From positions 38,881 through 102,880 of the forward strand of contig JBDRQD010000030.1 in NCBI GenBank assembly GCA_043826455.1: a DNA stretch of 64,000 nt, given 5' to 3'. A model generated the notes under the pieces. The model was not told where the DNA came from. It did not search any database and saw nothing but the letters and a program-made list of their open reading frames with translations. A program made the position numbers and the translations under genes. Shown here piece after piece: positions 16,077 through 39,522 of the stretch. The stretch's first letter is position 1. The number at the start of each line of letters is the position of its first letter. The stretch is from Candidatus Bathyarchaeota archaeon (GTDB lineage: Archaea; Thermoproteota; Bathyarchaeia; TCS64).

Positions 16077-16090
16077 TATTGGTACCAATA
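16077..16090. repeat. Palindrome TATTGGTACCAATA, copy 1
   Basis: Exact 14-mer; shares 20 bp (TAGTTTATTGGTACCAATAG) with copy 4. Confidence 0.95.
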
Positions 16091-16249
16091 GTGTTAATCG
16101 GAGCCCTATTTTCCTAAGAAACGGGGAAACTATGGTTGAATTGGTTCCCAACCGTAGAGGGATCTTGACTCATCACCTCTTGTCAGCCCAGGTCCACAGG
16201 CCACACATGGAATACCTACACGTTTTTCCCGTTAAACCCCGGAAGGCGC

Positions 16250-16790
16250 TCCATGCCTGTGCTCCTTGAACCTCCCCGGAGCACCCTCCTTCTCGTCAAG
16301 CAGCCGGAGAGTTGAGCCCACGGCAGAGGATGCAGAGGGTGCCCCTGAGGGGGTCACGGAGGGTGCCTCTAAGGGTACAAGGGTACCTCGGAGGGGGCTT
16401 AGGAGGGGGCTCCTATACCCCCTCCCCTTTGGCTAAGGAGGCCGGTTACACAATGGAGGAGCTACCCCCCTGGGTAGGCTCTAGCCTCGTAAGGGCCAGG
16501 CAAGGCACCCCCACAGGAGCCACAGGCCGAAGAGAGGCCCCTGCCCAAGCCCATGCTAGGCCCAGAGGAGGCCGCCAGGAGGCTGGCTAAGAGGCTACAG
16601 GCCAGGCGTCAAGCCGAGCCAGAGGCTAACACTATGCTCCTAGGGGGGGTGGTTCAGCAGACGCTGAGGGGGGCCTGGCCTCTGGCCTAGGTAGGGGCCT
16701 AGATGGGGGCTCTGATACCCCCTCCCCTTAGGCTATGAGGAGGCTCTCCAGCTGCTCAACCAGAAAGAGAGCGGCTCTATTGTCGAGTGT
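16250..16790. repeat. GC-rich low-complexity non-coding tract with a ~36-bp direct repeat
   Basis: GGGGGCTCCTATACCCCCTCCCCTTTGGCTA (16405) versus GGGGGCTCTGATACCCCCTCCCCTTAGGCTA (16705); recurring GAGGG/AGGC. Confidence 0.6.
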
Positions 16791-17042
16791 CAGGGGGCAA
16801 GTACCGGGTTACCAGCGTCAACGGGGAAATCAAGCTCACCCCAATAACCCAGACAGAGGTGCTGGCCGGCCTTTCCCTGGCGGCGGCGGTAAGTAAGGCC
16901 ATGGTTAACAACGTCGAGGTGAGCATGCTGGTCGTCGCAAGAAGGTGACCCACCCTTCAGGGATCGCTGAATTGCCCTGATCCGGAGAGCCATTCTGGAA
17001 AAGTTAGAAAAGTATATAATCCTGGAAAACCCAACAACACAT

Positions 17043-17303
17043 ATGAGCGTCAGCATCAAGGATCTCGACGAGAACGCCTACAGGAACCTCAAAGCCGAAG
17101 CCATCCGCCACGGCATGAGGGTAAGCGAGGCCGCAACCGAAGCCTTCAGACTCTGGGTCGCCTCCAAGAGACAGACGCGCCAAAGAGACCAGGAACGCAT
17201 GCGGAACGCGGCAGAAGACATGGACACGCTGAGAAGCCAAGGCAAGGTTATATGGTCCGGGGCTGAGGAGATAAGGAGATGGCGGGACGAACGGAAGCGG
17301 TAG
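17043..17303 (+). CDS. vapB: VapB-type antitoxin (RHH-like)
   Basis: SIKDLDENAYRNLKAEA...SGAEEIRRWRD; overlaps the PIN gene. Confidence 0.75.
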   Translation: MSVSIKDLDENAYRNLKAEAIRHGMRVSEAATEAFRLWVASKRQTRQRDQERMRNAAEDMDTLRSQGKVIWSGAEEIRRWRDERKR

Positions 17304-17695
17304 TCGACGCCTCCACAGCCATTAAATGGCTATCCGAGGAAGAGGGAACCCCCGCCGCCCTCAAACTGAGAGAAGAACACATAGAGGGAACCACAGTCCT
17401 GTCCGCCCCCGATCTACTCCTCTACGAGCTGGCCAACGCCCTCCGATACAGACCAGACTATGACGACGAGAAAGTGACGCAAGCCCTAATCAACGTCATC
17501 GACCTCCAGATCGACCTGATAACCCCCGGAAGGGAACTCCTCCAACAATCCACCAAAGACGCATACATCTACGATACGACAGTCTACGACTCATGTTACC
17601 TCGCCCTCGGTGAACTCATGGGGGTCGAAGTTTACACGTCTGACAGAAAGTTTTACGAGAAGGCGAAGGGATCAGACATTCTAAGGCTCATTTAA
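17279..17695 (+). CDS. vapC: PIN-domain VapC toxin
   Basis: VVDASTAIKW, YELANAL, VYDSCYLAL and TSD motifs. Confidence 0.9.
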   Translation: MAGRTEAVVDASTAIKWLSEEEGTPAALKLREEHIEGTTVLSAPDLLLYELANALRYRPDYDDEKVTQALINVIDLQIDLITPGRELLQQSTKDAYIYDTTVYDSCYLALGELMGVEVYTSDRKFYEKAKGSDILRLI

Positions 17696-17771
17696 CTCCA
17701 AAGCTGCGCGCGCCATGTGTGTGCATCGATTACAGCCCTGCGCACTTTGAAAGGTGATGCGTACACGCCTC

Positions 17772-18203
17772 CTACCCTAACACTTTAAGAAACTCATCGG
17801 GAGTGAGCGAGGCGATGAAGGCGGAGGCTTTAGTGAACTGCTTGTCCTCAGTGATGACATGGCTGGCCCCTGAGATCACGCCGGAAGCAGCGATGATGGC
17901 GTCAGGGAGCCTCATCCCGGTTTTCGCCCTTATCTTGCCGGCGAGCTCCGCCAACCCGGTATCGACGTCCACGATCGCGTACTCGCCTGTGGAGCGGAAG
18001 TGCAGGACGAAGTCCTTGAGCCCGGTCTCATCACCCGATGTGTGGTAGCCGACAGCGACCTCGGCGATGGTCACAGTTGAGATCGCGGCCCTGGCTTTCC
18101 CCGACTCAACCTGGTCAAGGATCTCAACCACGCCTTCATACCCAGGCTCCCGGTTGTACACCTTGAGTAGGACGTTCGTGTCGAGAACTACTCTCGGTCC
18201 CAC
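17772..18203 (-). CDS. vapC: PIN-domain VapC toxin
   Basis: VVLDTNV, TIAEV, LPDAIIAAS and ITED motifs. Confidence 0.9.
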   Translation of the reverse strand: MGPRVVLDTNVLLKVYNREPGYEGVVEILDQVESGKARAAISTVTIAEVAVGYHTSGDETGLKDFVLHFRSTGEYAIVDVDTGLAELAGKIRAKTGMRLPDAIIAASGVISGASHVITEDKQFTKASAFIASLTPDEFLKVLG

Positions 18204-18433
18204 TCCCTACGTAGCCTCCTCTGGAATGCTAGACTCGGCTCGCCGAGGGGCTTCGCCCTCATTAATATGTCGCTGAGCTTATCCTTTGGAACTTTCCTCA
18301 GCGTCACCGTGTCTCCGTCAGCCTGGAATATTACTTTGTCCCCTTCAGATACACCTAGAGCCACCCGGATGTCCTTCGGTATCGTGACTTGACCCTTGGA
18401 TGTGACTGAGCTTACTCCTACCTCCAACACCAT
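18188..18433 (-). CDS. vapB: AbrB/MazE/SpoVT antitoxin
   Basis: VTSKGQVTIPKDIRVALGVSEGD. Confidence 0.88.
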   Translation of the reverse strand: MVLEVGVSSVTSKGQVTIPKDIRVALGVSEGDKVIFQADGDTVTLRKVPKDKLSDILMRAKPLGEPSLAFQRRLRREWDRE

Positions 18434-18558
18434 CCCCCGAATAGACGGTCTACATACTTACTTATATGCATTACATTTCTTACTCGAAAATAAGAAAAAC
18501 TGTGTCTTTGCATGAAGATGACCCAGCAAATCTGTGTTACAGGGTCATGAGCGTAGGC

Positions 18559-18666
18559 GTGAACTACCCACCTTGCGCCTATATGAAGGCGTATATATCC
18601 CTTACGATGCGGGTTCAATTCATCCCATGACTGAAGTCATGGACTTTCTTGAACCCGCATCGTAAG
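18559..18666 (+). mobile_element. Hairpin element resembling IS200/IS605-family ends (non-autonomous remnant)
   Basis: GTGAACTACCC at 18559; perfect 18-bp inverted repeat 18601-18618/18649-18666 enclosing TTCATC-CCATGAC-TGAA-GTCATGG-ACTTTC. Confidence 0.45.
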
Positions 18667-18710
18667 AGAAAGCTTTATACCATTACACCATAGAAACAAT
18701 AATTGGTAAA

Positions 18711-18977
18711 ATGGCAGAAATAGTCGAAGTTGATAAATCAGGCCGAATAGTGCTCCCGAAGAGGCTCCGCGACGAGCTAGGCATCCGCGAGAGAACACGG
18801 CTGATACTCATGAAGAGAAACGGCAAAATAACAATGATGCCCCTCGATGTAGACGAGATAGCCCGAAGGCTAGAGAAAGAGCTAGAGGGGATGGAAGTTG
18901 AGGAGATCGCCGCATCCATCAGGAGGGAGATCAACGCCAAGATCGCGAAGGAGCACCCGGAGCTTTCTGCTGGATAA
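18711..18977 (+). CDS. vapB: AbrB/MazE/SpoVT antitoxin
   Basis: VEVDKSGRIVLPKRLRDELGI. Confidence 0.88.
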   Translation: MAEIVEVDKSGRIVLPKRLRDELGIRERTRLILMKRNGKITMMPLDVDEIARRLEKELEGMEVEEIAASIRREINAKIAKEHPELSAG

Positions 18978-19380
18978 CAACGTCTTCGTGGCAGCCATAG
19001 CCAAACCAAGCCGGACCACTGGAACACTTAGACTGATCCTCCACCTCATCGCAGACGACGACATACAGCTTATAGGCGACAGGTACCTCGCCGAGGAGAT
19101 GATCCGCTACGCAGAGGTCTACCCCTCAGAGACGGCGGCGTCGCTCCTGGAGGCCCTCGCCTCAAAATTAAAGCTCGTCGATGTAGAGGAAAAGTACCTA
19201 AAGATATGCAAGGAATACATTGGGACAAATGATCTATCTGACGTGTACCACGCAGCTGCCTGCCTTCAGACCGGATCGGCCCTGATAAGCGATGATGGAC
19301 ACTTCAACCGGATACGGGACGAGGGTATAATTAATGTCTGGAGCACCCATCAGGTAATAAAGGAGCTTCTGGGCGTCTAG
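18898..19380 (+). CDS. vapC: PIN-domain toxin (true start uncertain, probably further downstream)
   Basis: FLLDNNVFVAA, LAEE, DVYHAAAC and LISDDGHF motifs. Confidence 0.8.
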   Translation: MRRSPHPSGGRSTPRSRRSTRSFLLDNNVFVAAIAKPSRTTGTLRLILHLIADDDIQLIGDRYLAEEMIRYAEVYPSETAASLLEALASKLKLVDVEEKYLKICKEYIGTNDLSDVYHAAACLQTGSALISDDGHFNRIRDEGIINVWSTHQVIKELLGV

Positions 19381-19444
19381 AGGAACCTATAATATGATGT
19401 TTAGATTCACCTAATTCACGGTCTCACCTCCGGAAGCCGAGGCA

Positions 19445-19680
19445 CAGCAGCCCCAGAAAGAAGGAGGGGGTAACGCGGAGAAACCGGAAACGGCTGCCCC
19501 ACGCCAAAAGGAGCCACGGAAACACGCCTTCACGATCCCATTCCATACAGAAACATGGCCCACCCAGCTCATCAGGTGCAGCGCAACGAAAGGGTCTGAT
19601 GTGAAAAAAGTAGGGGGGTATTATATAATGGCGAATTTTTTCATTATTATACGAGATACCAGCCCCCGACGAGGCCGATG
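19445..19680 (+). repeat. Non-coding ~250-bp repeat, copy B (approximate ends)
   Basis: GGAGGGGGTAACGCGGAGAAACCGGAAACGGCTGCCCC...TGTGAAAAAAGTAGGGGGGTATTATATAATGGCGAATTTTT. Confidence 0.8.
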
Positions 19681-19811
19681 ACTCGGCACCAAGCCAAAGA
19701 TAATCAAGATTCTCTTAACTAAACTGTGGTAATGTGAATATGATAAAATACCATAGGATTCACTATATCCACATAGATTTAGAGCATTACCTGAGGCTAC
19801 ATGGAGGCTGC

Positions 19812-21377
19812 TTGGCGCTGGTTGAAGGTTTAAACGAGGCCGTCAGGGGGTCGGCGCGGGGCAGCCTCCTGCTCATGGTGGGGCAGGTGGCGTCGACGGT
19901 CGTCTCAGCCCTCACCGTTATGGCTGTGGCGAGGCTCCTGGGACCTGAGAACTATGGGGTCGTCACCGTCGTCATGGTGCCCATCGGCCTCGCCCTCCTC
20001 ATACAGGACCTGGGAGTGAACACAGCCCTCACCCGGTTCACAGCCCTCCTGCGGAGAGAGGGGCGCCTAGGTGACATAAGGGTCCTTGTCCGGGTCGGCC
20101 TAACCTTCAAAGCAGCTGTCGCTGGGACGATAGCCCTGGGCTACTGGGCTGGGGCCGGGACCATCGCCTCCTTCTATCTCCAGAGGCCTGAGCTCGAGGG
20201 GCTCATCAGGGTAGTATCGCTAAGCGTGCTGGGGGAAGCCTTGATGACGGCTGTGCAGGCGGTCCTAGTGGGGCACGAGATGATGGGTTACAGGAGCTTC
20301 ACCCAGGTGCTCTGGACGGTGCTGAGGGGATCCACATCCATCACGCTTGTCTGGATCGGGTTCGGCCCACTAGGACACCTAGTGGCCAACACCGCCGCAC
20401 CCTTCGCCACGGCCGCGGTAGCCCTCATTGTCTTACTCTCAACCCTAAAGAAGGATGGCGGAGAGACACACCTGACCAGCCTGGAGGCGCTGAGGATCAT
20501 CCTGGGGTTCAGCCTACCCCTATACGGCGCCACGCTCGTAGGGGGCGGCCTCACCCAGATCCAGAACCTTCTCATGACCCTGCATGTGCCCAACAGCGTG
20601 ATCGGTAACTACTCCGCGGCCGTCAACTTCGGGGTCCTGATAAGTTTCTTCACCGTCCCCATCGCGACGGTGCTCTTCCCCCTATTCTCAAGGCTGCCCC
20701 GCGGTAGCCCTGAGCTGAGCACCGTGTTCAGGAACTCGGTGAAGTACACCACCTTCATCACGTTGCCCGTAGCCCTCTGCCTGGTGGCGCTCTCGGAGGC
20801 AGTCATAGCCGTGGTGTACGGTGGTGGGTACCCGCTGGCCGCAGTCTTCATGAAGGTCTACCTCATCCTCTTCCTGTTCGAGGGGATCGGCGGGCTGAGC
20901 CTCGGGAACCTGGTGGTGGGCGTAGGGGAGGCAAAGGTGGCTTTGGCGGCGAACCTGTTGACGGTGCTGGTGGGCGCCCCCATGAGCCTCGTACTGATCC
21001 CCTTGTACGGGATCTGGGGCCTGCTCGCAACCCTGATAGTTGCACCGAGGGTCGGAGCCCTCTTCATGCTCTGGTGGGTGTGGAAAAGCCTAGGCTTCAC
21101 GGTGGACTGGGGCGCATCTCTTCGTCTTTACGTGGCTGGACTGGCCGCGTTCCTCACAGCATCCCTCGCCCTCATATTCACCGGAATTAGTGGATGGGCT
21201 GCAATCCTGTTAGGCGGAGGACTGTTCGCCGCGTCTTACCTAATTACGGTGCCGGCGCTGGGGGCTCTAAGAAAGAGCGACTTAGACGACTTATCCACAA
21301 TAACCGACGTGAGTGGCCCCCTCAAGCTACCTCTCACATTGGTACTAACTATTATGGTGCGATTCGTTAAAGAATAA
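19812..21377 (+). CDS. Oligosaccharide flippase (Wzx/MOP family)
   Basis: About 14 TM segments; ARLLGPENYG, GNYSAA and LFPLFSR motifs; TTG start at 19812 after GGAGG (the ORF track starts it at 19734). Confidence 0.88.
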   Translation: MALVEGLNEAVRGSARGSLLLMVGQVASTVVSALTVMAVARLLGPENYGVVTVVMVPIGLALLIQDLGVNTALTRFTALLRREGRLGDIRVLVRVGLTFKAAVAGTIALGYWAGAGTIASFYLQRPELEGLIRVVSLSVLGEALMTAVQAVLVGHEMMGYRSFTQVLWTVLRGSTSITLVWIGFGPLGHLVANTAAPFATAAVALIVLLSTLKKDGGETHLTSLEALRIILGFSLPLYGATLVGGGLTQIQNLLMTLHVPNSVIGNYSAAVNFGVLISFFTVPIATVLFPLFSRLPRGSPELSTVFRNSVKYTTFITLPVALCLVALSEAVIAVVYGGGYPLAAVFMKVYLILFLFEGIGGLSLGNLVVGVGEAKVALAANLLTVLVGAPMSLVLIPLYGIWGLLATLIVAPRVGALFMLWWVWKSLGFTVDWGASLRLYVAGLAAFLTASLALIFTGISGWAAILLGGGLFAASYLITVPALGALRKSDLDDLSTITDVSGPLKLPLTLVLTIMVRFVKE

Positions 21378-21388
21378 CTAGAAACCAC

Positions 21389-21402
21389 TATTGGTACCAA
21401 TA
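21389..21402. repeat. Palindrome TATTGGTACCAATA, copy 2
   Basis: Extended hairpin AAACCA-C-core-TGGTTT, 11 nt after the flippase stop. Confidence 0.95.
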
Positions 21403-21519
21403 TGGTTTATTTGATGTTGCTGCACACGTGAAAATTACGAATTGTTCCCTATGAATGAGCGTGCACGCATGACGCAACTTTTTTAACCATTATGTAATGC
21501 TATATGCTTTGCCACGAGG

Positions 21520-21711
21520 GTGTGTGAGATGGCTAAAATAGTGTTTGAAGTGCCGAACGTCTGCGACAGGTGCGGCTTTCACAACTTCAACATAGTTGGA
21601 TCGATCTACAATGGAGGCTTCAACTATACTCACCTAGCCGTGCAGTGTATGAGGTGCGGCCACAAACAGGTCGAGATACGCCTCAGACACAGTATTATGG
21701 AGACCCTGTAA
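21520..21711 (+). CDS. Small zinc-ribbon protein
   Basis: CDRCG...CMRCGH. Confidence 0.5.
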   Translation: MCEMAKIVFEVPNVCDRCGFHNFNIVGSIYNGGFNYTHLAVQCMRCGHKQVEIRLRHSIMETL

Positions 21712-21828
21712 AACCCGCCATAAAACAATACATGAAAACCAGAGATGAATAAACACATATTAGATATTCCGTCCACAATGCATTGTACAACCCAATAAAA
21801 CACAAACCTCATAAACAATAGTTTCCAT

Positions 21829-22452
21829 ATGGCAACTAAAGTTTACGGTGATAGTATGTTACTCCACAGATACCTTGAAACCCTCCTAGGATCCAAGACC
21901 AAAATAAAGATCCTCAGAACGCTCCACAGGCACGAAGGAAAAGAATTCACAATAAGAGAACTCTCAAACTTCATCAATACCTCACATACAGGCGTACAAA
22001 AAGCACTCCAAGACCTCTACGAGATGAACGCGGTAACCCTCAAAGCAGTTGGAAGGTCTCACACAGTGTCACTCAAAGAGGAAAGCCACCTAACCCCAAT
22101 ACTCACCAGCTTATTCAACTATGAGGAAGAAACTATTAGGGAACTCCAGAAAGATATCAGAAAACATCTCTGCCATGAACCCACCATAAAACAAGTGAAA
22201 ATATTCGGCAGCGTAGCCCGAGGCCAAGAAGAACCTCGAAGCGACATCGACCTCCTAATAATAACCAGCGACAGGGAAAAAACAGAAGAAATCCTCACCG
22301 GGTTACAAATCCTGTGTAACAATAAATACGGAAACCCCATCATACCCCATATAATAGCAGAGGACGAAAAAAGCAGCCAAAGTCTAATAGAAGAAATACA
22401 GGACAAACACATCACCATCTGCGAGAAAACCCGGGAGATAGAATATGTCTAA
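21829..22452 (+). CDS. wHTH-fused minimal nucleotidyltransferase (MNT antitoxin)
   Basis: N-terminal HTH; FGSVARG...SDIDLL. Confidence 0.88.
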   Translation: MATKVYGDSMLLHRYLETLLGSKTKIKILRTLHRHEGKEFTIRELSNFINTSHTGVQKALQDLYEMNAVTLKAVGRSHTVSLKEESHLTPILTSLFNYEEETIRELQKDIRKHLCHEPTIKQVKIFGSVARGQEEPRSDIDLLIITSDREKTEEILTGLQILCNNKYGNPIIPHIIAEDEKSSQSLIEEIQDKHITICEKTREIEYV

Positions 22453-22846
22453 AACAAGGCATGTAAACAAGGAACTCTACCGAAACTATCTTCAAAAAGC
22501 ACGTGAAAACTTAGAAACCGCAAAAGAGTCACTACAAGCCGGACGCTGGAACGCCGCCGTAATAAACGCGGTTCACAGCGGCATAAGCGCAACCGACGCC
22601 ATAACCGTCTTTATGGTGGGTGTAAGACACGCAGGAGATAGGCACGAGGATGCTCTTGCGTTACTCCAAACCCTAAATCTACCAAAAGATACACTCAGGG
22701 CAAAAAGTAGACAACTGAGTAGACTACTCAGCATCAAGAACGCCTCTGAGTACGAAGAGAGACTCATCAGGGAAAAAGAGGCGATAGAAGCCGTAAAAGA
22801 CGCTGAAAGATACTTTGAATATGTGGAAGCTATACTTCACACATAA
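22445..22846 (+). CDS. HEPN domain protein (MNT-HEPN toxin partner)
   Basis: YLQKARENLETA...WNAAVINAVHS...KNASEY; overlaps the MNT gene. Confidence 0.82.
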   Translation: MSKTRHVNKELYRNYLQKARENLETAKESLQAGRWNAAVINAVHSGISATDAITVFMVGVRHAGDRHEDALALLQTLNLPKDTLRAKSRQLSRLLSIKNASEYEERLIREKEAIEAVKDAERYFEYVEAILHT

Positions 22847-22904
22847 CTCATCATCTATTCTTACATTTTAAGAGGAACTTGATCTTAGGTAACCAGCGTC
22901 AATA

Positions 22905-23517
22905 ATATATCCCATAGTGGTCGCAGTCGTCGCCCTGGCCTCCCCAAGTAGTGTACGCGTTATACGCAGAGGGCTACCTGTACGCGGACGCCTACATGAG
23001 GCTCTACATGCTTCAGTTCATCTCCCTCAGGTTAGGTGGAGTAGGTCTGGTAAGCCTCTTAATCGCGTTAAAGGAGACCCGCGTCGTCTTCACCTATTCT
23101 CTCATCAACTTTCTGGTAACCATCTCCTTGGGACTGGTACTTATACCGGGGCTTGGCGTCAACGGGCAAATAGCATCCATCACTCTAGGCCCGTTAACCG
23201 GGCTATCCTACGGGCTATGGTGGGTTAAGAAAAATCTGGGCATCACAATCGACTTTACAGTCGCATCCAAAACCCTTCTAGCAGCCATCGCCGCCTGCCT
23301 CACCACCAACGTATTCGTCTCTATGTCTAACCTCAACCCCTGGCTCACTTTGCTTATAGACAGAGCCATATGCATGACCGTCTACGTCGCCTCAGTCATC
23401 ACATTAAAGGTGCTGAACCACAGGGACATAGACAACCTAGAGAACATCACCACCGGCCTAGGACCCCTATCGCCGCCCCTAACACACGTACTCAGATTGT
23501 TGAAACAGGTCACCTAG
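22905..23517 (+). pseudogene. Flippase C-terminal fragment (5'-truncated, frameshifted)
   Basis: PIVVAVVALASP, frameshift, then LYAEGY..AYMRLY...WWVKKNLGITIDF...DIDNLENIT, paralleling the C-terminal third of 19812..21377. Confidence 0.75.
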
Positions 23518-23609
23518 TATGCGCACGCGGCCCCCCTCTCACCCCTTATATTTCACTGAACCCTAGCCACTTTAAACATGTTTTATAATCTCGTCAACCT
23601 AAACCAGCA

Positions 23610-23623
23610 TATTGGTACCAATA
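23610..23623. repeat. Palindrome TATTGGTACCAATA, copy 3
   Basis: ATATTGGTACCAATAT at 23609-23624, preceded by AAACCA as in copy 2. Confidence 0.95.
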
Positions 23624-23815
23624 TAGCGCCGGGTGCTCACACCCAGCCCAATCAACTCACTTTGGACGCATAAGTGCTATCAAGCTTGATACTGGTTGAA
23701 TAGCGTCAGTTGTGCCGTTGAGAAAAAAGGGTGACCTCGCAATGCGGCACATGGTTGGCGGTATCAAAGAAATGGTGTTGATTGGATCTAATTCATTACC
23801 TTATCTGTGTTAGCT

Positions 23816-24440
23816 CTACCTCGATCCTCTCTGAGACCCACGTGGTCCCTGTAGAGCTCCAGTAGGATTACCCGGAGCTCGCCTCTTCTCAGGGTGGTTG
23901 GACAGCAGGGCCTCTCTCAGGTCGGTGACCTGGTCCGATCCCTTCTTGAATGCTTGGATGTACCTGTCACGCAGGTAAGTGTACATGTCTCCCTCGAGGA
24001 GGCTGAGTATGATCCTCAGGGCTGTACCCCTCACCCTGGCATCAGTTGTCTCCAGGAGCCTCTCCATGGCTCCCTGTGTCGCCTCACGCACCCTGCGCCT
24101 CGACTCCTCGCTACCCCTGCTGAGGATGTTCTGGACAACCTTGGTTAAAGGTTGGATGCTGTGTTGACAATGTGTCATAAGCAGTATAGCGACCTTACAA
24201 TGTGCTTGTTGAGTGGTTCAAGGTGAAGCGCATGCGGTTATTGGTGCTGTCAGAGGCTCTACTCTGGGATCGTCTATAGCTCTCGAGGAACTTGAGGCCT
24301 TAGGATGCACGCTAGTAGGAGCGCCCAGGTCCAAGGGAGAACCTGTTGACAGCGGCGATCATGGATGCGAGGATGTCTATATCTTGTTGAGGATCATGCG
24401 GGTTATGGCGGCGAAAGCGGCTGCGTAAGCATCCATGGTG
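23816..24440 (-). pseudogene. Degenerate HEAT-repeat-like gene
   Basis: Fragments RAIDDPRVEPL and LLETTDARVRGTALRII in broken frames. Confidence 0.35.
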
Positions 24441-25020: not shown

Positions 25021-25338
25021 TCAGGTTCCTCTCAGGTTTCCTTCGTGTTATGCTCAGGTTTCTCTCAGGTTCAATTTGGCTATCCTCCAGTTATCGCTTG
25101 GTTTCCATCAGGCTTTCCCATGGTTTCCCTCAGGCTTTCCTCCGGCTTTCGCGTGGCTTCACTAAGGCTTCCTTCAGCTTCCCTTCAGCCTTCGCGTGGC
25201 TTCCCTTAGGTTATCCTTCAGCTATCCCGTGGTTTCCATCAGGCTTCCCTCCAGCTATCCCGTGGTTCCTTCCAGTTGTCACGCGGTTTCCCTCTAGCTA
25301 TCCTCCAGTTATGCCGTGGCTCCCCTCAGGTTCAACCA
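25021..25338 (+). repeat. Degenerate tandem array with ~11-bp period (~29 units)
   Basis: Units such as TCAGGTTCCTC, TCAGGTTTCCT, TTGGTTTCCAT, CAGGCTTTCCC, CAGCTATCCCG. Confidence 0.8.
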
Positions 25339-25467
25339 AGTTCACTCTCTAGCTCTGGATACGGCTCTCCAGTTGCTCAGCCAGAAGATGACAGGCTCGT
25401 GAGACGTGAACTTGGGGCCCTTCAACGAGGCGATGTGGGAAAATATTAGGTAGTTACTGGAGCCAAG

Positions 25468-25698: not shown

Positions 25699-25719
25699 GC
25701 TTGCCCATTTAACCTAGTT

Positions 25720-25733
25720 TATTGGTACCAATA
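25720..25733. repeat. Palindrome TATTGGTACCAATA, copy 4
   Basis: 21 nt after the Lrp fragment stop; flanked by AACCTA...TAGGTT. Confidence 0.95.
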
Positions 25734-25805
25734 GGTTCGCCTCTTCACATGTATCATCATCACCTTATGAACGCCAAAGTGCAGCCTTGAAGTATATTTC
25801 AAGTG

Positions 25806-26033: not shown

Positions 26034-26137
26034 TGTACGCGGATACGTCCCACGATGGTTAATTATGGTTTATGAATGACTGGTCATAAGCTGCCACGTC
26101 TCCTCCGGATGCCCGTAGAGGGGTATTGATACCCGCA

Positions 26138-28888: not shown

Positions 28889-29116
28889 TTAGAGGACTAT
28901 CATGGTGATGGTGGACCTCACATTCTCTAATCGCCGAATCTTCCAGCTGATGACATCCTTCAGCTCCTGCATAGTCGTCGCTTCGACCATGGTGATGATG
29001 TCGTAGACCCCGTAGACCATGTACGCCTCCTTCACCTCAGGGATCTTTGAGACCGCTTTGAGTACATCGGCCTCCGCCCCAATCTCCGCGTTGATCAACA
29101 CATACGCCTTAGCCAA
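28889..29116 (-). CDS. Stand-alone Lrp/AsnC ligand-binding domain protein
   Basis: AYVLIN...VKEAYMVYGVYDII...IRRLENVRSTITMIV. Confidence 0.9.
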   Translation of the reverse strand: MAKAYVLINAEIGAEADVLKAVSKIPEVKEAYMVYGVYDIITMVEATTMQELKDVISWKIRRLENVRSTITMIVL

Positions 29117-31365: not shown

Positions 31366-31598
31366 AGTAGTCCTCTTCTAGCTTGGCTTTTAATCGATAG
31401 TGCCCCACAAGGTGAACTGCTCTACATTCCAAGGGCTTCTCTCCAGGGTGCCGATGACCGTGTCGAAGTCTTCCCGCTCAATGTTCTGCTCGCTGCACAC
31501 TATCAGCCAGGCTACCTCTTCTCCTTCCCCTATATGAGGAATTACACCTTGAGACGCTTTCCTTGTAATGACTGTGTCTTGATTGGAAAATCGTTTAT

Positions 31599-32882: not shown

Positions 32883-33021
32883 GTAAAGTACGATTCATGG
32901 AACACCGAAAAGGATTCTATGAGTAGACTTCCCTCTTTTCAGCCATAATTTGCGCGCTCGTGATCCTGGTTGTCCCTGCTAACGATGATCCATGAATCCG
33001 GCTCAACCGTTAAGACCATGG

Positions 33022-33035
33022 TATTGGTACCAATA
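33022..33035. repeat. Palindrome TATTGGTACCAATA, copy 5
   Basis: GTATTGGTACCAATACACGT, 20 bp identical to copy 6. Confidence 0.95.
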
Positions 33036-33067
33036 CACGTATATTTTGGGTTAACCTACACTAAGCT

Positions 33068-33298
33068 ATGGTTCGCAGGCACAGGATCAGCGAGGAGGAG
33101 GTTAGGCCTGTGATGAGGGCTGTGCATCGGTGCCTCGCCGAGATGGTTGGGGCTGAGCTGCTCTCCGAGGACGCGTACCACCTGTACACGTTACTGTGGA
33201 GGTTTAAGGAGCACAGGTCGGGGCCGCCCCACTACCCCGACGCGACCCGCGAGGCCATATTAAGTCTCCTTGATGAAACCTCTGCGATGCTCTGGTGA
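33068..33298 (+). CDS. Hypothetical protein
   Basis: 76-aa ORF with ATG and coding-like composition; no recognised motif. Confidence 0.5.
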   Translation: MVRRHRISEEEVRPVMRAVHRCLAEMVGAELLSEDAYHLYTLLWRFKEHRSGPPHYPDATREAILSLLDETSAMLW

Positions 33299-33445
33299 GG
33301 GCGCGCAGGAGTAGCCACTGACTATTCCATACGTGTGTGTATCTACTACCTGCATAGTTTGAAAGGAAGCAGGTGATTAGGACTTTCACTCATGTGCCGC
33401 CAATCTGTGCGTAGGTTTCTTTCCACAGGGCTCCAAGTATTTGCC

Positions 33446-34096
33446 ATGAATTATGTTGTCGTTCTCGGTGAGGCGCTTCTCGCCGCCGAGCCCGAGGAGA
33501 AGGTCAGGATAGCCCATGCAATCTATGAGCTGGAGGACGCCCGGGCTGAGGCGTACCTCCTCGACGCGCTGGGCGAGTCTGACAATCAGGCGCGGGCAGC
33601 TGTAGCCTACGCCCTCAGCGTCTCCGCCACCCACAGATCAGAGGAGAGGCTAATCCAGCTCCTTGACGACTCCTACTTTGCTGTGAGGGTCTGGGCAGCC
33701 TGCGGATTGGCCCACCTTAGGAGTCGTGCCGCGGTGCCGAGGCTGATTGAGGCGCTCCACGATGAAGAGGAGGGTGTCGTGGCCGCCGCTGTGTCCGCCT
33801 TGGGGGAAATAGTGGACCGGAGGGCCGTGGAGCCCTTGGTGGGGCTTCTCACTGGCAGGAGGTACATCTCTGGAGTTTTACTGTCGCTGGGCTCCATAGG
33901 AGACCCCGGTGTAGTCGAGATCATCGCGGGCTACCTGGACGACTCCGACCAGGATATACGAGAATCAGCGTTGATAGCCCTCAGACGCTTCCCCGGCTCT
34001 GTTCCCCGCGCAGAACTGCAGAGGCTCCTGGAGTGGGAGAGGGATGCAGTGAATAGAGGCTTGGCCAGTTACCTGTTAGGACTTGAACCTAACTGA
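33446..34096 (+). CDS. HEAT/PBS-lyase repeat protein
   Basis: Repeated AVPRLIEALHD / ALGEIVDRRAVEPL units. Confidence 0.85.
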   Translation: MNYVVVLGEALLAAEPEEKVRIAHAIYELEDARAEAYLLDALGESDNQARAAVAYALSVSATHRSEERLIQLLDDSYFAVRVWAACGLAHLRSRAAVPRLIEALHDEEEGVVAAAVSALGEIVDRRAVEPLVGLLTGRRYISGVLLSLGSIGDPGVVEIIAGYLDDSDQDIRESALIALRRFPGSVPRAELQRLLEWERDAVNRGLASYLLGLEPN

Positions 34097-34183
34097 TGGA
34101 TCACATTGCTAACGCAACACAGCATTCACAGCCACTACATAATTTTAATATTAACTTAATTATATCAATAGCGGGGCGTCTGG

Positions 34184-34552
34184 ATGAGCTATGAACTTGA
34201 CACCGGTAAGGAGGGCCTCCTAATGTTCTTCAAGCCCTGGGAGTTCAGGATCATGTCATACCTTTGGGGCATCAAGCCCTCGGGCGCTAACAGCAGAGCC
34301 GTCTGGATCCATAATCATCAAACCATGGCTGAGCCCATCAGCAGGACCTCGGTGATCAAATTCCTGAAGCTCATGGCTGAAAAAGGGGTTCTCACGGTAG
34401 AGGAAAAGTCTGGTAAAGGAGGCTACCAAGGGATATATTATCAGAAGTACACTGAGCCGGAGTTTAGGCAGTACATTGCTAAACACTTCATAACTAAGCT
34501 GTTGAAGGAGTTTCCTGAGAAGACGCGAAAAGTCATAGAGAGTTATACATGA
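34184..34552 (+). CDS. BlaI/CopY-like winged-helix regulator
   Basis: IMSYLW...SRTSVIKFLKLMAEKGVL...GKGG. Confidence 0.7.
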   Translation: MSYELDTGKEGLLMFFKPWEFRIMSYLWGIKPSGANSRAVWIHNHQTMAEPISRTSVIKFLKLMAEKGVLTVEEKSGKGGYQGIYYQKYTEPEFRQYIAKHFITKLLKEFPEKTRKVIESYT

Positions 34553-34615
34553 TAACGTGAGCACAATTAGGAATCATTTTAAATAACTCTTTTTGTATAT
34601 TTTAATTGATATAAT

Positions 34616-34858
34616 ATGAGTGAAGTCAATTATGATCTTACTCCTGTTGAGAAAAAACCAGGCAGAAGGTATCGTAAAGGAAGCAAGTATGACCCTATAC
34701 TTGATAAATTCCTCGAAGGTAAGCATAAACTAGTCACAGTTGATGTGGCTGGAAAGGAAGCTAACTACATTAGCATGCAGCTGAAGAAAAGGATCGATGC
34801 TCGCGGACTCAAGGTCAGAGTATCAGTGGCAAATAACAAAGCCTACCTAGAAAAATAA
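34616..34858 (+). CDS. Small basic hypothetical protein
   Basis: 80 aa, Lys/Arg-rich, ATG start after an AT-rich promoter region. Confidence 0.6.
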   Translation: MSEVNYDLTPVEKKPGRRYRKGSKYDPILDKFLEGKHKLVTVDVAGKEANYISMQLKKRIDARGLKVRVSVANNKAYLEK

Positions 34859-34901
34859 CTTGCGTACAATTCTAATAATATCAAGGCGCAGGAGTAAGGT
34901 G

Positions 34902-35834
34902 ATGACTGAGATACTTGTGACCGGCGGAGCAGGCTTCATAGGCACTAATCTGGTCAACGAGCTGAGGCGCCGCGGCCACCGGGTTCACGCCGCAGACCTC
35001 ATCAACACAGACCGAGAAGGCTACACCCGGGTCGATGTCCGCAGCTACAGACAACTCGAAAAGCTGCTCGACGCCCACAAGTTCGATGTCGTATACCACC
35101 TGGCGGCGGAGTACGGCCGCTGGAACGGTGAGGACTACTACGAGAACCTCTGGCAGACAAACTGCGTAGGCACCAAGCACATTATACGGTTACAGGAAAA
35201 ACTTGGCTTCAGGATGATCTTCTTCAGCAGCGCCGAGGTATACGGCGACTACACGGGCACCATGACCGAGGACGTCATGATCAACAACCCCGTCAAAGAC
35301 ACCCTCCAGATGAACGACTACGCCATCACCAAGTGGGCCGGCGAACTCATGTGCATCAACGCAGCCAAGATGACCGGCGCAGAGATAGTCCGCACCCGGC
35401 CAGTGAACTGCTACGGCCCCCACGAGCACTACACGCCCTACCGCGGCTTCATACCCAAGTTCATCTACCACGCACTACACAGGAAACCCTACACCGTCTA
35501 CACAGGCCACAAACGCATCATCGACTACGTCGAAGACTCGTGCCGCACATGGGCCAACATAGTAGACAACTTCAAGCCGGGCGAAGTCTACAATGTGGGC
35601 GGCTGCCCCGAGTGGATGCACACCATCAAGGAGTACAGCGACATGGTCCTCGAGGCCGTGGGCCTCGACGACCGCCTGGTCACCTACAAGCCCACGGAGC
35701 CCCACACAACCCAGATCAAGACCATCGACTGCACCAAGGCTGTACGCGACCTCAAGCACGACCCCAAGGTGCCCCCCGAGGAGGGCATCAGGCGAACAGT
35801 TGAATGGATGAAGTGGTACTATAGGATGGATTAG
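34902..35834 (+). CDS. NAD-dependent sugar epimerase/dehydratase
   Basis: VTGGAGFIG, HLAA, YAITK (YxxxK) and NCYGP motifs. Confidence 0.9.
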   Translation: MTEILVTGGAGFIGTNLVNELRRRGHRVHAADLINTDREGYTRVDVRSYRQLEKLLDAHKFDVVYHLAAEYGRWNGEDYYENLWQTNCVGTKHIIRLQEKLGFRMIFFSSAEVYGDYTGTMTEDVMINNPVKDTLQMNDYAITKWAGELMCINAAKMTGAEIVRTRPVNCYGPHEHYTPYRGFIPKFIYHALHRKPYTVYTGHKRIIDYVEDSCRTWANIVDNFKPGEVYNVGGCPEWMHTIKEYSDMVLEAVGLDDRLVTYKPTEPHTTQIKTIDCTKAVRDLKHDPKVPPEEGIRRTVEWMKWYYRMD

Positions 35835-35835
35835 G

Positions 35836-36831
35836 ATGAGCGTATACGACTGCGTGAAAGATAAGACGGTTCTGGTCACCGGCGGAGCCGGAGCCATCGG
35901 AGGCAACCTGGTCAGGAAGCTGGTCGAGCTCCAAGCCAAGGAGGTAGTGATCCTCGACAACCTCAGCAGCAGCTACGCCTGGAACATCCCCCCAGCCCCC
36001 GGCGTCAGGTTCATCCAGGGCGACATCCTGGACGACGAGAAACTCAAGTGGGCCTTCAAGCACAAGCCCGAAATCGTCTACCACCTTGCCGCCCACTTCG
36101 CAAACCAGAACAGCGTCGACAACCCTGAGACAGACCTCATGGTGAACGGCATGGGCATCCTTAAAGTGCTTCAATACAGCCAACTCACCGGCGTAGACCG
36201 CTTCATCTACGCGTCCAGCGGCTGCGGCATATACGGAGAGGACAGCCCCATGCCCTTCAAAGAGGAGTCCGTCTCCATGAAGCTCTACACCCCCTACCAG
36301 GTCACCAAGATGCTGGGCGAACTCTACACCAACTACTACCACAACCTCTACGACATGCCCACCGTCAACGCCCGGTTCTTCAACAGCTACGGCCCCGGCG
36401 AGGTCCCCGGCAGGTACAGGAACGTCATCCCCAACTTCATATACTGGGCCATCAACGGCCAGCCCCTACCAATAACAGGCACCGGCGACGAGACCAGGGA
36501 CTTCACCTATGTAGGCGACATCGTCGACGCCCTGATCCGCATGGCGTACTTCGATGAAGCAATAGGGGAAGCCTTCAACATAGGAACCTCCAGAGAGATA
36601 ATGATCAAGGACCTAGCACAGTGGATCAATGAATTAACTGAAAACTCGGCCGGAATCGTTTACAAGCCTCGCCGCAACTGGGATAAGAAAAACCGGCTTC
36701 TAAGTAGCATAGAGAAAGCCCGAAGAGTCCTCAGATACGATCCAAAGACCGACTTCAAGGAGGGCCTCGGCCACACCTACAACTGGTTCACAGAGAACCT
36801 GGACAACATCAAACACTCAGCAGAGTTCTAA
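35836..36831 (+). CDS. NAD-dependent sugar epimerase/dehydratase
   Basis: VTGGAGAIG, YQVTK, RFFNSYGP and TRDFTYV motifs. Confidence 0.9.
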   Translation: MSVYDCVKDKTVLVTGGAGAIGGNLVRKLVELQAKEVVILDNLSSSYAWNIPPAPGVRFIQGDILDDEKLKWAFKHKPEIVYHLAAHFANQNSVDNPETDLMVNGMGILKVLQYSQLTGVDRFIYASSGCGIYGEDSPMPFKEESVSMKLYTPYQVTKMLGELYTNYYHNLYDMPTVNARFFNSYGPGEVPGRYRNVIPNFIYWAINGQPLPITGTGDETRDFTYVGDIVDALIRMAYFDEAIGEAFNIGTSREIMIKDLAQWINELTENSAGIVYKPRRNWDKKNRLLSSIEKARRVLRYDPKTDFKEGLGHTYNWFTENLDNIKHSAEF

Positions 36832-36902
36832 GCCGCCTGAAGACCTTAACCCTTACCCGACATCAGAAATCAACAACATGCCCCCCTAACAGATATAAAC
36901 CC

Positions 36903-37151
36903 GTGTACAGAACCGTTTACATGGCCACCATGACACAGGTCCAAGTCAAAATACCGGAGAACCTCGTCAAAAAGATTGACGAATGGATCATAGACGGCAG
37001 GTTCACCAGCAGAAGCGAGGCCATCAGAACCATCCTCACCCTCTACGAGGAACGGGAACGCACCCGAGAGTTCTACACGATGCTCCACGGCAGAGCCTCC
37101 GAGGCCCAGGAGCACCCCGAGCTGCTCATACCCTTAGAGGAAGCCCCTTGA
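36903..37151 (+). CDS. RHH antitoxin
   Basis: VQVKIPENLVKKIDEWI..GRFTSRSEAIR. Confidence 0.78.
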   Translation: MYRTVYMATMTQVQVKIPENLVKKIDEWIIDGRFTSRSEAIRTILTLYEERERTREFYTMLHGRASEAQEHPELLIPLEEAP

Positions 37152-37411
37152 GGATCCTCCTCCACCCCAAGGCTGCCGAGTACCTCATGAAAAGTAGCGA
37201 CGATCCTCGGTCAAGAATAAAGCAGCGCCTACACGAGTTGGACGACCAGCCCGAGAAGAAGGGAAAACGACTGAAACACTCGCCCTATTATAGCCTTCGG
37301 ATAGGAGACTACAGAGCCATCTACATGGTAGACCCGGTTAAAGCCCAAGTCGTCATCCTGTACATCGGCCACAGAAAGGACGTCTACGACGCCTTCGATA
37401 AAATATTCTAA
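37148..37411 (+). CDS. relE: RelE/ParE family toxin
   Basis: TTG overlapping the antitoxin stop; YSLRIGDYRAIY...IGHRKDVY. Confidence 0.85.
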   Translation: MRILLHPKAAEYLMKSSDDPRSRIKQRLHELDDQPEKKGKRLKHSPYYSLRIGDYRAIYMVDPVKAQVVILYIGHRKDVYDAFDKIF

Positions 37412-37448
37412 CTAAACAAACACGGCATATAGTAGCCGTACAATAATA

Positions 37449-37667
37449 ATGAAAGCCAAGAAAATAGGTCTCACTGCTCCAATCCCGTCGCTTCTCCAGG
37501 GGCTTCTCCATGGCGTACCCAGCTCTCGCCGGGCTGCCGTAAACCAAAGTATCGATGGGCACATCTGGCCAGAGACCTATACGGTTACCGTGTTCTGCAG
37601 GATTGATGTCGTAGATTACCATGCAGTAATGAACGACGAGCACAGCGACTACAAGTGGGTAAACTAA
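37449..37667 (+). pseudogene. Possible NUDIX hydrolase C-terminal fragment
   Basis: Ends MNDEHSDYKWV, typical of a NUDIX C-terminus; no NUDIX box. Confidence 0.35.
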
Positions 37668-37744
37668 GCACCAGAAGACGCTCGCCCTCCTACTGCAAAT
37701 GATCTAGGAATCAAAGATCTTCCTACAATAATGACAACCATGCA

Positions 37745-38170
37745 TCAACCGCTAAGAAAGGGTAGAGAGGTGTCCTAAGCAAAAAATCCGTAAAATATGG
37801 GTCTTAATTTATCCATTCAGCGGAGACGAAGCCGCCCCAAGGAATAGTAATAGATTACATGAAAAGCACTCACAATGGTTGAAGAACCCTTGCTTGCAAC
37901 TCCCATTATTAGCACCAATCCCTTCACTATCCTGCCACATACAGAAAAGCACCGAAAAGCATCAACCCTGAAAAAGATGAATTTTTTTCCGCCTTATCCC
38001 GGCGGGGGCGGGATAAGAGGCACGGACACACTGGGTAATGAGTCCACTGTGAAAAAACGTAGGGGGGTACTATATTATGACGAATTTTTCTACCATAAAA
38101 CGGGTCACTCGCCACCCGCGAGGCCAAAAAAACCCGGGGAACACACGTGAAAAAGGTAGGGGGGTACCAA
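37745..38170 (+). repeat. Non-coding repeat, copy C (with insertions and a second G-string motif)
   Basis: GCCGCCCCAAG at ~37831, CCTTCACTATCC..CATACAGAAA at 37921, TGTGAAAAAACGTAGGGGGGTAC at 38048, GTGAAAAAGGTAGGGGGGTACC at ~38147. Confidence 0.7.
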
Positions 38171-38418
38171 TTTTAGGAAGAGAAAACCTCCTAAAATAGG
38201 GGTCAGAGCCCCATACATGAGGCAAAAGAAGCCCATGACCACGACACTCACACCAAAGAAGATAACTAAAATCCTCTGAATTAGGTTGCCTCGTTCCTAT
38301 GTTGTTCAAGGAGGGCATCGGTCACACCTATAACTGGTTTATGTGAACTGGGAAAACATCAAACAGTCAGCCGAGTTCTAACTCAACAATAAAATAACTG
38401 TACATCAATCTTAGACTG

Positions 38419-39498
38419 ATGGCTCTCGGCATCATCCTCGGCACCCGCCCCGAGATAATAAAGATGGGCCCCATAATACGCCTATGCGAGAAGAGGTCCG
38501 TCCCCTACTACCTGCTCCACACTGGCCAGCACTACAGCTACGAGATGGATCAGGCCTTCTTCAGGGACCTGGAGCTACCCGAGCCCAGGATCAACCTGAA
38601 CGTGGGCTCAGGCACCCACGCGGAGCAGACGGCCAGCATCATGGTCGGCGTAGAGAAGACCCTGCAGAAGGAGGACACAGGCGTAGCCCTCGTCCAGGGG
38701 GACACCAACACCGTCCTGGCCGGCGCCTTGGCCGCCGCCAAGCTCCAGGTTCCAGTGGGCCATGTGGAGGCCGGGCTGCACAGCTACGACAGGGGGATGC
38801 CGGAGGAGATCAACCGGGTGGTAGCCGACCACCTGTCCGACTTCCTCTTCGCGCCCACAGAGGAATCCAAGAGAAACCTCCTCAAGGAGGGCATACCCGA
38901 TGAAAGGATCCATGTCACAGGCAACACAGTGGTGGACGCCGTCCACCAGAACCTGGAGCTGGCCAAGGAGAAGTCAACGATCCTGAAGAAGCTGTCCCTG
39001 GAGCCCGGCCAGTACATGGTGGTCACAGCCCACCGCGCCGAGAACGTCGACCGCAGAGACCGGCTCACAGGGATAATAGAGGGCCTTGGCCTAGTCGCGG
39101 AGCACCTGGACCAGCCCATCATCTACCCCGTCCACCCCCGGACACAGAAGATGATCAAGGAGTTCAGGCTGACGACCCGGAACCTCAAGATCGTTCAGCC
39201 CCTAGGCTACCTGGACTTCCTGGCCCTGGAGGCATCATCTAGCCTGGTCCTCACCGACTCCGGCGGCGTCCAGGAGGAGGCCTGCATACTGGGCGTCCCC
39301 TGCGTCACGCTGCGGGAGAACACGGAGCGCCCCGAGACCCTTCAGGTGGGCTCGAATGTCTTGGTCGGGGCAGAGCCGGAGAGGATACTCCAAGGAGCCT
39401 TGGAGATGAGCCGGAGGAAGAGGGGTTGGCCTAATCCCTTCGGGGACGGAAACGCGGCGGAGAAGATTATTAAAATTATCGAGGAATCCCGAAATTAA
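38419..39498 (+). CDS. wecB: UDP-N-acetylglucosamine 2-epimerase (non-hydrolysing)
   Basis: GTRPEIIKM, HTGQHY, QGDTNT, PEEINR, TDSGGVQEEA and NPFGDG motifs. Confidence 0.95.
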   Translation: MALGIILGTRPEIIKMGPIIRLCEKRSVPYYLLHTGQHYSYEMDQAFFRDLELPEPRINLNVGSGTHAEQTASIMVGVEKTLQKEDTGVALVQGDTNTVLAGALAAAKLQVPVGHVEAGLHSYDRGMPEEINRVVADHLSDFLFAPTEESKRNLLKEGIPDERIHVTGNTVVDAVHQNLELAKEKSTILKKLSLEPGQYMVVTAHRAENVDRRDRLTGIIEGLGLVAEHLDQPIIYPVHPRTQKMIKEFRLTTRNLKIVQPLGYLDFLALEASSSLVLTDSGGVQEEACILGVPCVTLRENTERPETLQVGSNVLVGAEPERILQGALEMSRRKRGWPNPFGDGNAAEKIIKIIEESRN

Positions 39499-39522
39499 CG
39501 TGTATTGGTACCAATACACGTT
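39497..39522. repeat. Palindrome copy 6, perfect 26-bp AACGTGTATTGGTACCAATACACGTT
   Basis: Overlaps the wecB stop codon; core at 39503-39516. Confidence 0.95.

Follow-up and report, generated by a model that had tools for sequence, protein, structure and literature searches.

In the ribbon-helix-helix (RHH) autorepressors with repeated operators, such as Arc, MetJ (with its met-box arrays), CopG, ParG/ParR and omega, the N-terminal strands of two chains form a DNA-reading ribbon that exists only in the dimer. The operators of the FadR/PdhR-type GntR regulators consist of ATTGGT and ACCAAT half-sites with a 3-bp spacer, while archaeal Lrp-type regulators such as Ss-LrpB use several regularly spaced palindromic boxes. 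The 14-bp palindrome TATTGGTACCAATA occurs in six exact copies in a 64,000-nucleotide stretch of Candidatus Bathyarchaeota archaeon DNA (the window; contig JBDRQD010000030.1, positions 38,881 to 102,880), and one of these copies stands directly in front of an open reading frame (ORF) for a 76-residue protein, named p76 here. The six palindromes are most likely the binding sites of this small undescribed protein. No described regulator or operator of Bathyarchaeia was found in the literature, as far as titles and the beginnings of abstracts go, and among the titles listed for TGGTACCA in the archaeal literature only primer or unrelated uses are apparent.

Like the RHH autorepressors, p76 belongs to the size class of about 45-80 amino acids and has a basic N-terminal segment followed by two helices. 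The short palindromes that would be its operators are arrayed upstream of its gene, a palindrome stands at or just before the start in four genera, and specificity appears to track a few N-terminal residues. It differs from them in its third helix and conserved loop, in the irregular spacing of the arrays (20-108 bp) and in having some intragenic sites, and searches by sequence and by fold pair it with no solved RHH protein. Read from the predicted model, the arm-helix-helix order of p76 fits the RHH fold. However, since there is no detected similarity, a third helix is present and the dimer is a proposed one, p76 is not filed here as an RHH protein. The TGGT/ACCA half-site letters and AT-rich outer positions of the FadR/PdhR operators are also found in TATTGGTACCAATA, but the latter has no spacer, and no GntR-family gene is linked to the sites (the family itself was not tested). 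As with Ss-LrpB, several palindromic boxes of about 15 bp share one control region and autoregulation is proposed, but p76 has neither a helix-turn-helix (HTH) nor a RAM domain and the spacing of its boxes is irregular.

From the sequence evidence, it is probable, though well short of certain, that TATTGGTACCAATA is the operator of p76, a small putative DNA-binding protein that would be autoregulated and that belongs to an orphan family of one Bathyarchaeia family. A recount of the window returns all six exact copies reported by the earlier note, at 16077, 21389, 23610, 25720, 33022 and 39503, and beyond these a one-mismatch copy, TATTGGCACCAATA, at 6479-6492. When up to two mismatches are allowed there are seven matches, compared with a mean of 0.17 and a maximum of 2 in 100 dinucleotide-preserving shuffles of the window, none of which reaches seven. 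The window corresponds to positions 38881-102880 of contig C30 in the host genome, G000 (2,947,636 bp in 81 contigs, 57.8% G+C, 97.7% complete; G and C numbers designate genomes and contigs throughout). The whole assembly has six exact copies, every one of them in the window and clustered inside 23 kb of C30, in a stretch whose G+C is lower than on both sides (0.47-0.57 versus 0.57-0.63). The earlier description of the six as intergenic holds: none overlaps the gene calls, which are longest-ORF calls, and the one-mismatch copy lies inside the RACo gene (5346-7253). The perfect 26-bp palindrome at 39497-39522, centred on site 39503, and the two pairs sharing 20 bp (16072-16091 with 25715-25734, and 33021-33040 with 39502-39521) are equally real. 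Two further dyad extensions that had been proposed are not, as AAACCA..TGGTTT at 21389 is one base out of register and AACCTA..TAGGTT at 25720 is three bases out. Across 80 distinct copies from several genomes, conservation is limited to the 14 bases, with A at position 14 in 90%.

The protein comes into view through comparison with relatives. All of the genomes compared are metagenome-assembled genomes (MAGs), many of them fragmented, so absences are weak evidence. Counts from related genomes are interdependent. Immediately behind site 33022 the window becomes homologous to G013 again, and on the G013 side this happens immediately behind the last copy of a six-copy array, whose gene-proximal copy corresponds to site 33022. 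The piece shared after the palindrome is the p76 ORF. Homologues of p76 are found by tblastn beside the arrays of G013, G014, G015, G023 and G006, and a profile search detects the family in 17 of 32 genomes of the genus. Of 25 loci found in the genus, 16 have a copy with up to two mismatches at a distance of 4-75 bp in front of the p76 homologue; this copy is usually the array member closest to the gene, in arrays that contain up to seven. In a sample of 301 genomes of the class Bathyarchaeia, the p76 family is found in 26, all from one family (25 of 70, plus G000; by genus 16/31, 5/18, 2/5 and 2/5), and in none of the 230 genomes of the class outside that family. Across four genera, at about 30% protein identity, a palindrome precedes the codons of the conserved N-terminal RRHR, here called the arm, by 3-38 bp. 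At 31 loci, the best upstream dyad of 14 or 15 nucleotides mostly ends 3-16 or 36-38 bp before the arm. The loci without an arm or a convincing dyad are G013 (where the array is further upstream), G042, G016:C33, G015:C232 and G248. Many family members have their ATG inside the palindrome: with 6 nt between palindrome and arm, the ATG of TAATGGTACC falls in frame, and 27 of 178 family proteins with a recognizable arm begin with MVP, which is ATG GTA CC, the palindrome core.

Gene and palindrome also occur together at the level of whole genomes. The looser pattern AWTGGTACCAWT is commoner than its reversed control in about 19 of the 32 genomes of the genus, and genomes clearly above that control are called motif-positive. 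A TGGTACCA-type p76 is carried by 15 genomes of the genus, every one of them motif-positive, and by none of the 13 motif-negative ones; one of the latter, G046, carries instead a p76 of the CTGTACAG type.

Changes in the arm are accompanied by changes in the palindrome. At most loci, the arm RRHR[I/L] goes with TGGTACCA. In G017, RRHKL goes with the TTGTACAA type (TATTTGTACAAATA), while RRHQL goes with the CTGTACAG type, (T/G)AACTGTACAGTTA or AACTGTACAGTT, both in G046, of the same genus as G000, and in G228 of another. In G282, RRQRI is paired with TAATGGATCCATTT, which has a GGATCC core (AATGGATCCATT), and at G000:C67 and in G263 the arms RRRHRLN and DRRHRLN are found with ATGG-T-CCAT. The exceptions are G000:C10, where ERRHRLN stands with TAATGGTACCGTTA, and G108, where the palindrome is the irregular GTACAGTAC. 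The pairing of RRHQL with CTGTACAG was tested on fresh data, namely 11 metagenome loci, eight of which cover the N-terminus: all eight have AACTGTACAGTT or TACTGTACAGTT at -23 or -19, and six have a second copy at -52. With G046 and G228 included, the pairing holds in 10 of 10 loci. No TGGTACCA-type site is found at the RRHQL loci of G046, G228 or these eight. There is one copy of AACTGTACAGTT in G046 and one in G228, and two of ATTTGTACAAAT in G017, in each case beside the cognate p76 gene; neither occurs anywhere else in its host genomes or in four other genomes tested. As for AATGGATCCATT, two copies flank the gene in G282, and of two in G000 one is 1.4 kb from the C67 paralogue. The covariation of arm and palindrome and the conserved position of the site can be read directly from these loci, and from them we infer that p76 binds the palindrome.

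The palindrome is found elsewhere in the genus as well. Its exact TATT form is present in 12 of 24 same-genus genomes and in none of 16 from other genera, and the reversed control pattern gives zero. In these genomes it forms arrays of 2-7 exact copies, 26-67 bp apart, with unrelated spacers. Overall, array spacings cluster near 27, 42, 53 and 66 bp, although the 66/67 peak comes from related arrays. G000 itself has 26 copies of AWTGGTACCAWT, 20 of them outside ORF calls, and it contains a sister, TAAT-type palindrome, TAATGGTACCATTA (loosely AATGGTACCATT), in arrays of 2-5 copies, the tight ones 40-89 bp apart. Named by eye from translations, the genes whose divergent or upstream regions contain these sister arrays are two paralogous M20-type peptidase genes, an Mtd-like gene, a transporter/CoA-transferase pair and a carbamoyltransferase/amidohydrolase pair, and together they are a candidate regulon of a p76 paralogue. 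The two types replace each other: the M20-peptidase/Mtd spacer and the region after two HAD genes have TATT sites in G019 and G013 versus TAAT sites in G000, and in G008 both types are interleaved within one array. G000 has three p76 genes, the TATT-type gene of the window and two paralogues on C10 and C67. All of its TATT copies are within 17 kb of the TATT-type gene, while the TAAT arrays are at metabolic promoters. A maximum-likelihood tree of 24 members splits into two halves, both well supported; TATT-type genes are confined to one of them and TAAT-type genes are present in each, the inner resolution being weak (7 of 21 branches open). The C67 paralogue directly precedes a short tyrosine-recombinase ORF (C67:34956-35453) and is 4 kb from a full-length one (C67:30297-30788), and may lie within an integrated element. 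The p76 homologue G008:C235:6695-6910 contains in-frame TAG codons, as do small winged-helix (wHTH) homologues on G042 contigs C20 and C78 (one and three TAG); these could be pseudogenes or cases of TAG read-through (pyrrolysine).

Some copies in relatives are inside genes. The palindrome is kept at the same codons of aroC in G014, G011 and G041 and of aroE and aroD in G041 and G001, and near the same codon of hmgA (HMG-CoA reductase) in G021 and G010. The aroC peptide at this position is GIGTNI, versus GLGVEV in G000. Thus the DNA signal seems to be retained inside these genes even at some cost to the protein. Such intragenic copies, exact or near-exact, recur at or near the same codons in two or three species: they are seen at 1873, 4407 and 5387 of locus L047 (G041:C70) and at 375 and 1355 of L049 (G001:C282), with others in L002 and L006 (aroC) and in L007 and L008 (hmgA). 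A 14-mer that stays exact across species amid diverging surroundings looks like a protein-binding site under selection, unlike a mobile repeat, and this supports the proposal of the earlier note that the palindrome is the site of a dimeric protein. By that note, a known transcription factor box consistently placed at promoters would have refuted its ideas; the palindrome is essentially such a box, since it is placed at the start of one gene family, but both box and protein are undescribed.

There is no significant match of p76 in Pfam, NCBIfam or PHROG (at E<=1 the only Pfam hit is an unrelated one, 0.11), and no usable match in the ESM Atlas. A large protein collection contains 67 relatives, all without a Pfam domain and, in the few cases that bear a name, labelled “hypothetical protein”. 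A representative library yields 256 family clusters at E<=0.001, of which 147 reach E<=1e-10. The AlphaFold2 model of the monomer (pLDDT 87, pTM 0.76, from a 19-row alignment) is confident: residues 1-8 make up a basic arm without regular structure, and three helices span residues 9-28, 34-47 and 61-75. The family also has a conserved loop, W-R-x3-H-R-x-G-x-P-x-Y-P-E. Prediction of a two-copy complex gives a score of 0.27, against a mark of 0.42, which speaks neither for nor against a dimer.

In the proposed mechanism, a p76 dimer would read the palindrome, with the conserved N-terminal arm RRHRI contacting the GGTACC core and the three helices after it forming the dimer body, much as in RHH repressors. 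Because each member has a palindrome at or just upstream of its start, the protein should repress its own promoter; on the simplest account, each family protein would bind the palindrome at its own start. Site 33022 would be the autoregulatory operator of p76, abutting the TATA-like box TATATTTT to which transcription factor B (TFB) would bind. The distance from TATATTTT to the ATG is the one usual for leaderless promoters in archaea. As for the other five copies, they would be additional p76 sites within a 23-kb variable island of cell-surface glycan genes and toxin-antitoxin pairs, where they may regulate neighbouring promoters or block read-through past the flippase and wecB genes. That the distal sites act as roadblocks or insulators is a guess.

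Several observations weigh against this assignment. A promoter role for the five distal sites is unsupported: none has a conserved gene start within 40 bp, so that only site 33022 of the six is near one, and no general TATA-like signal is seen in the flanks of the 80 copies. The copies inside coding sequences of relatives are unexplained by a plain promoter-operator model. The protein is without a recognized DNA-binding fold: sequence and profile searches of the PDB give at best a designed coiled coil (E 0.33), and a Foldseek search of the model against the PDB gives nothing at E<=0.001, the best E being 2. No p76 is found in three motif-positive genomes, G019 (64% complete), G041 (85%) and G009 (91%), with G042 as an ambiguous case. 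TAAT-type sites are present in G013 and G008, although each yielded only one p76 type; in G008 the array contig ends where the p76 gene would be. Finally, each gene is passed on together with the site next to it, so that the covariation amounts to about five evolutionary events and not to many independent ones.

A broader proposal is that p76 represents a new class of minimal archaeal DNA-binding proteins, with an 8-residue RRHR arm, a three-helix body and a fold without solved relative, and with an arm code, private operators, regulons and roadblocks. This is put forward tentatively, as possible rather than expected. One or two arm residues would then set the operator sequence through a recognition code, in which R to Q or K would go with GG to TG, and H to Q with a centre changed from TA to AT. 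Diversification of the family would have produced paralogues, each with an operator of its own; some of these operators would have stayed single-copy autoregulatory switches, while the TGGTACCA types would have expanded into regulons with arrays at metabolic promoters. Sites would be selected inside essential genes and past stop codons, where the bound protein may act as a transcriptional roadblock or insulator.

Table 1. Positions of the palindromes, genes and arrays (window coordinates unless a contig of G000 is named).
Feature	Position	Strand	Remarks
One-mismatch copy TATTGGCACCAATA	6479..6492		inside RACo gene; possible member of the set
ParE-like toxin gene	14902-15159	minus
Exact copy 1	16077..16090	none	in about 1.6 kb without convincing ORF, between the ParE-like toxin gene and a PIN/antitoxin pair
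Flippase gene	19734-21377		Polysacc_synt/MurJ-type; Pfam annotation
Exact copy 2	21389..21402		12 bp past the flippase stop (21377), about 430 bp ahead of the NT/HEPN pair
Exact copy 3	23610..23623		93 bp past flippase fragment 22951-23517, ahead of minus-strand ORF 23816-24178 (no family)
Exact copy 4	25720..25733		stretch without family match; 20 bp common with copy 1
Exact copy 5	33022..33035		proposed p76 operator; ends 4 bp before TATA-like TATATTTT and 32 bp before the ATG
TATA-like TATATTTT	33040..33047	+	putative promoter element, read from sequence; ends 20 bp upstream of the p76 ATG
p76 ORF	33068..33298	+	76 aa, starts MVRRHRISEEEV; proposed DNA-binding protein; sole family member in the window
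WecB gene	38419-39498		Pfam annotation
Exact copy 6	39503..39516		centre of the 26-bp palindrome; 5 bp past the wecB stop (39498)
AATGGTACCATT array	C6:46719-46957
AATGGTACCATT array	C6:60160-60353
AATGGTACCATT array	C15:84611-84850
AATGGTACCATT array	C81:12760-12831
AATGGTACCATT array, wider spacing	C48:84082-84408		243 and 83 bp
p76 paralogue	C10:6197-6457		TAAT-type site at start
p76 paralogue	C67:34621-34839		RRRHRLN arm; ATGG-T-CCAT dyad at start

The surroundings of the sites are compiled in Table 1. By Pfam, the stretch contains the flippase, the fragment of a second flippase, two epimerases, WecB and a GT4 glycosyltransferase. The toxin-antitoxin genes are five PIN, two ParE, NT/HEPN, MazE and TumE. 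Further products are an 828-aa protein with a TIG domain, proteins of GAF-wHTH and receiver-PAS-GAF architecture, a HEAT-repeat protein and a BlaI-like wHTH protein. No Rfam family matches between 14000 and 41000 at the gathering score. The island is a mosaic, with its pieces on different contigs in the nearest relative, where the flippase homology stops at the end of a contig. Homology to the CoA-transferase operon of that relative begins at 39579, 63 bp beyond site 39503, and the site therefore belongs to the variable island and not to the conserved operon. Sites do lie directly past the flippase and wecB stops, as the earlier note had it, but the third such placement, after an Lrp fragment, is not confirmed: the only Lrp-like gene found, the RAM-domain ORF at 28889-29116, adjoins no site. 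Its description of the sites as marking module borders is half borne out, by the mosaic intergenic DNA and the proximity of site 39503 to the start of homology. Against it, the orthologues of relatives have no site: a TATTGGTACCAATA-type site is seen beside none of nine loci with wecB, flippase, epimerase, NT/HEPN or GAF-wHTH orthologues, and the regions upstream of 12 CoA-transferase orthologues are likewise without one. When the window is searched in six frames with a profile for p76 relics beside the other five sites, only the one gene comes up (E 2.3e-31; next 0.38), apart from two weak matches at 16235-16432 that are not collinear.

Other features of the region can be described briefly. 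The RAM-domain ORF (minus strand) is a complete, stand-alone 75-aa protein of the Lrp/AsnC type and no gene fragment, and its DNA has matches of about 70-78% identity in nearly all genomes of the genus, often several per genome. A repeated element of about 75-165 bp (AAAAA.GTAGGGGGGTA.TATAT.ATG...) is located upstream of the flippase and wecB genes (19589-19676 and 38037-38212), with more copies on G000 contigs C43, C39, C48 and C31 and in several relatives (75-94% identity). This GTAGGGGGGTA-bearing element could be a promoter or 5' element shared by glycan genes, or a miniature inverted-repeat transposable element (MITE). Degenerate tandem repeats (GGTTTCC.TCAGG...) at 25024-25336 form six overlapping 95-nt copies with 60-71% identity, and no family matches around them. 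A 148-nt segment, the 3' end of the 828-aa TIG-domain gene, is directly duplicated with 91% identity (14668-14815 and 15446-15593), the second copy being 0.8 kb downstream. Between PIN/MazE genes, at 18598-18669, there is a 35-nt inverted repeat with a 2-nt gap and 83% complementarity. At 3886-7253, an MtmB-like methyltransferase without in-frame stop adjoins the RACo activase, and to the right of the island (39666-45115) is an operon for a family III CoA-transferase, an HpcH-type aldolase, a radical-SAM activase and a glycyl-radical enzyme.

The palindrome could instead belong to a different transcription factor or a nucleoid protein, with p76 as its most constant target gene. This is rather unlikely, but it would agree with the lack of a recognizable DNA-binding fold in p76 and with the arrays at promoters of metabolic genes that have no p76 gene anywhere near. 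In G013 and G008, two or eight copies directly precede a small winged-helix gene (G000:C6:48383-48655), whose strict family is found only in motif-positive genomes. However, that family is present in just 8 of 19 motif-positive genomes, and six of its nine loci have no nearby site. Moreover, the specificity of an unlinked factor would have had to follow the changes of the p76 arm about five times, and variant palindromes present as single copies would have had to be retained by it at p76 genes and nowhere else. As a candidate binder the winged-helix protein was rejected, the strict family being in 8 of 32 genus genomes with sites upstream at three of nine loci, and it is kept as a likely target gene.

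The idea of a centromere-like or chromosome-organizing site, with p76 as a centromere-binding adaptor and the arrays as partition sites, starts from a likeness. A small autoregulated binder preceded by arrayed short repeats is also the layout of parC/ParR and ParG, six copies lie within 23 kb, and some copies of relatives are intragenic, as bacterial parS often is. The 14-16 bp palindromes of ParB-parS and Noc-NBS are likewise exact, of similar length, clustered in a few copies and sometimes intragenic. Nevertheless this is improbable. A partner ATPase gene is not seen as a regular neighbour of p76, there are several arrays per genome, at divergent metabolic promoters on different contigs, and the sites are tied to a 76-aa protein of another fold. 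Nor does the parS- or NBS-like site suggested by the earlier note find its protein: ParB_N (PF02195) has no match in G000, while the control search succeeds with 10 of 14 reference genomes, and the single Cdc6 gene (Cdc6_C) of this 81-contig assembly is on contig C60 and not on C30.

A site-specific recombination or cassette-boundary site that shuffles the modules of the island is less probable still. The mosaic nature of the island, the synteny breakpoint close to site 39503 and the different neighbourhoods of the p76 module (site and gene) in different genomes all speak for it. Yet the perfect palindrome has no asymmetric core to set direction, orthologous genes of relatives have no site, and array copies 26-67 bp apart are stable across species. 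Copies also persist, without rearrangement, at orthologous codons of aroC, aroD, aroE and hmgA; active crossover sites should not survive in arrays and inside such essential genes. The six tyrosine recombinases (PF00589) of G000 are all on contigs other than C30, and none is found among the window ORFs scanned. The recombination target of the earlier note is not supported. A selfish repeat of the repetitive extragenic palindromic (REP) or MITE kind, as also suggested there, or a preserved or avoided restriction-modification target, is hardly credible, even though the palindrome is short and mostly intergenic in G000 and its GGTACC core is a classical restriction site: the 80 copies have only 14 bp in common with unrelated flanks, all six exact copies of the genome are within 23 kb, the region has no Rfam family, and a restriction target would neither form arrays at the start of one gene family nor covary with its protein. 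A virus or plasmid origin was also considered and rejected, as the one viral contig with two copies, 60 bp apart, is an unrelated 30% GC phage with a tandem coding repeat.

Bathyarchaeia are abundant, uncultured archaea of sediment and groundwater. The p76 locus offers them a testable protein-operator pair, consisting of a 76-aa orphan protein, an exact 14-bp site and natural specificity variants that predict residue-base contacts. Should the pairing with p76 fail, the palindrome would still be a strongly selected, lineage-specific DNA signal with another reader. If p76 is indeed its reader, a new small DNA-binding family would be added to archaeal transcription, and its regulon, including peptidases, Mtd, CoA-transferases, the aro operon and the cell-surface glycan island, would be mappable in MAGs.

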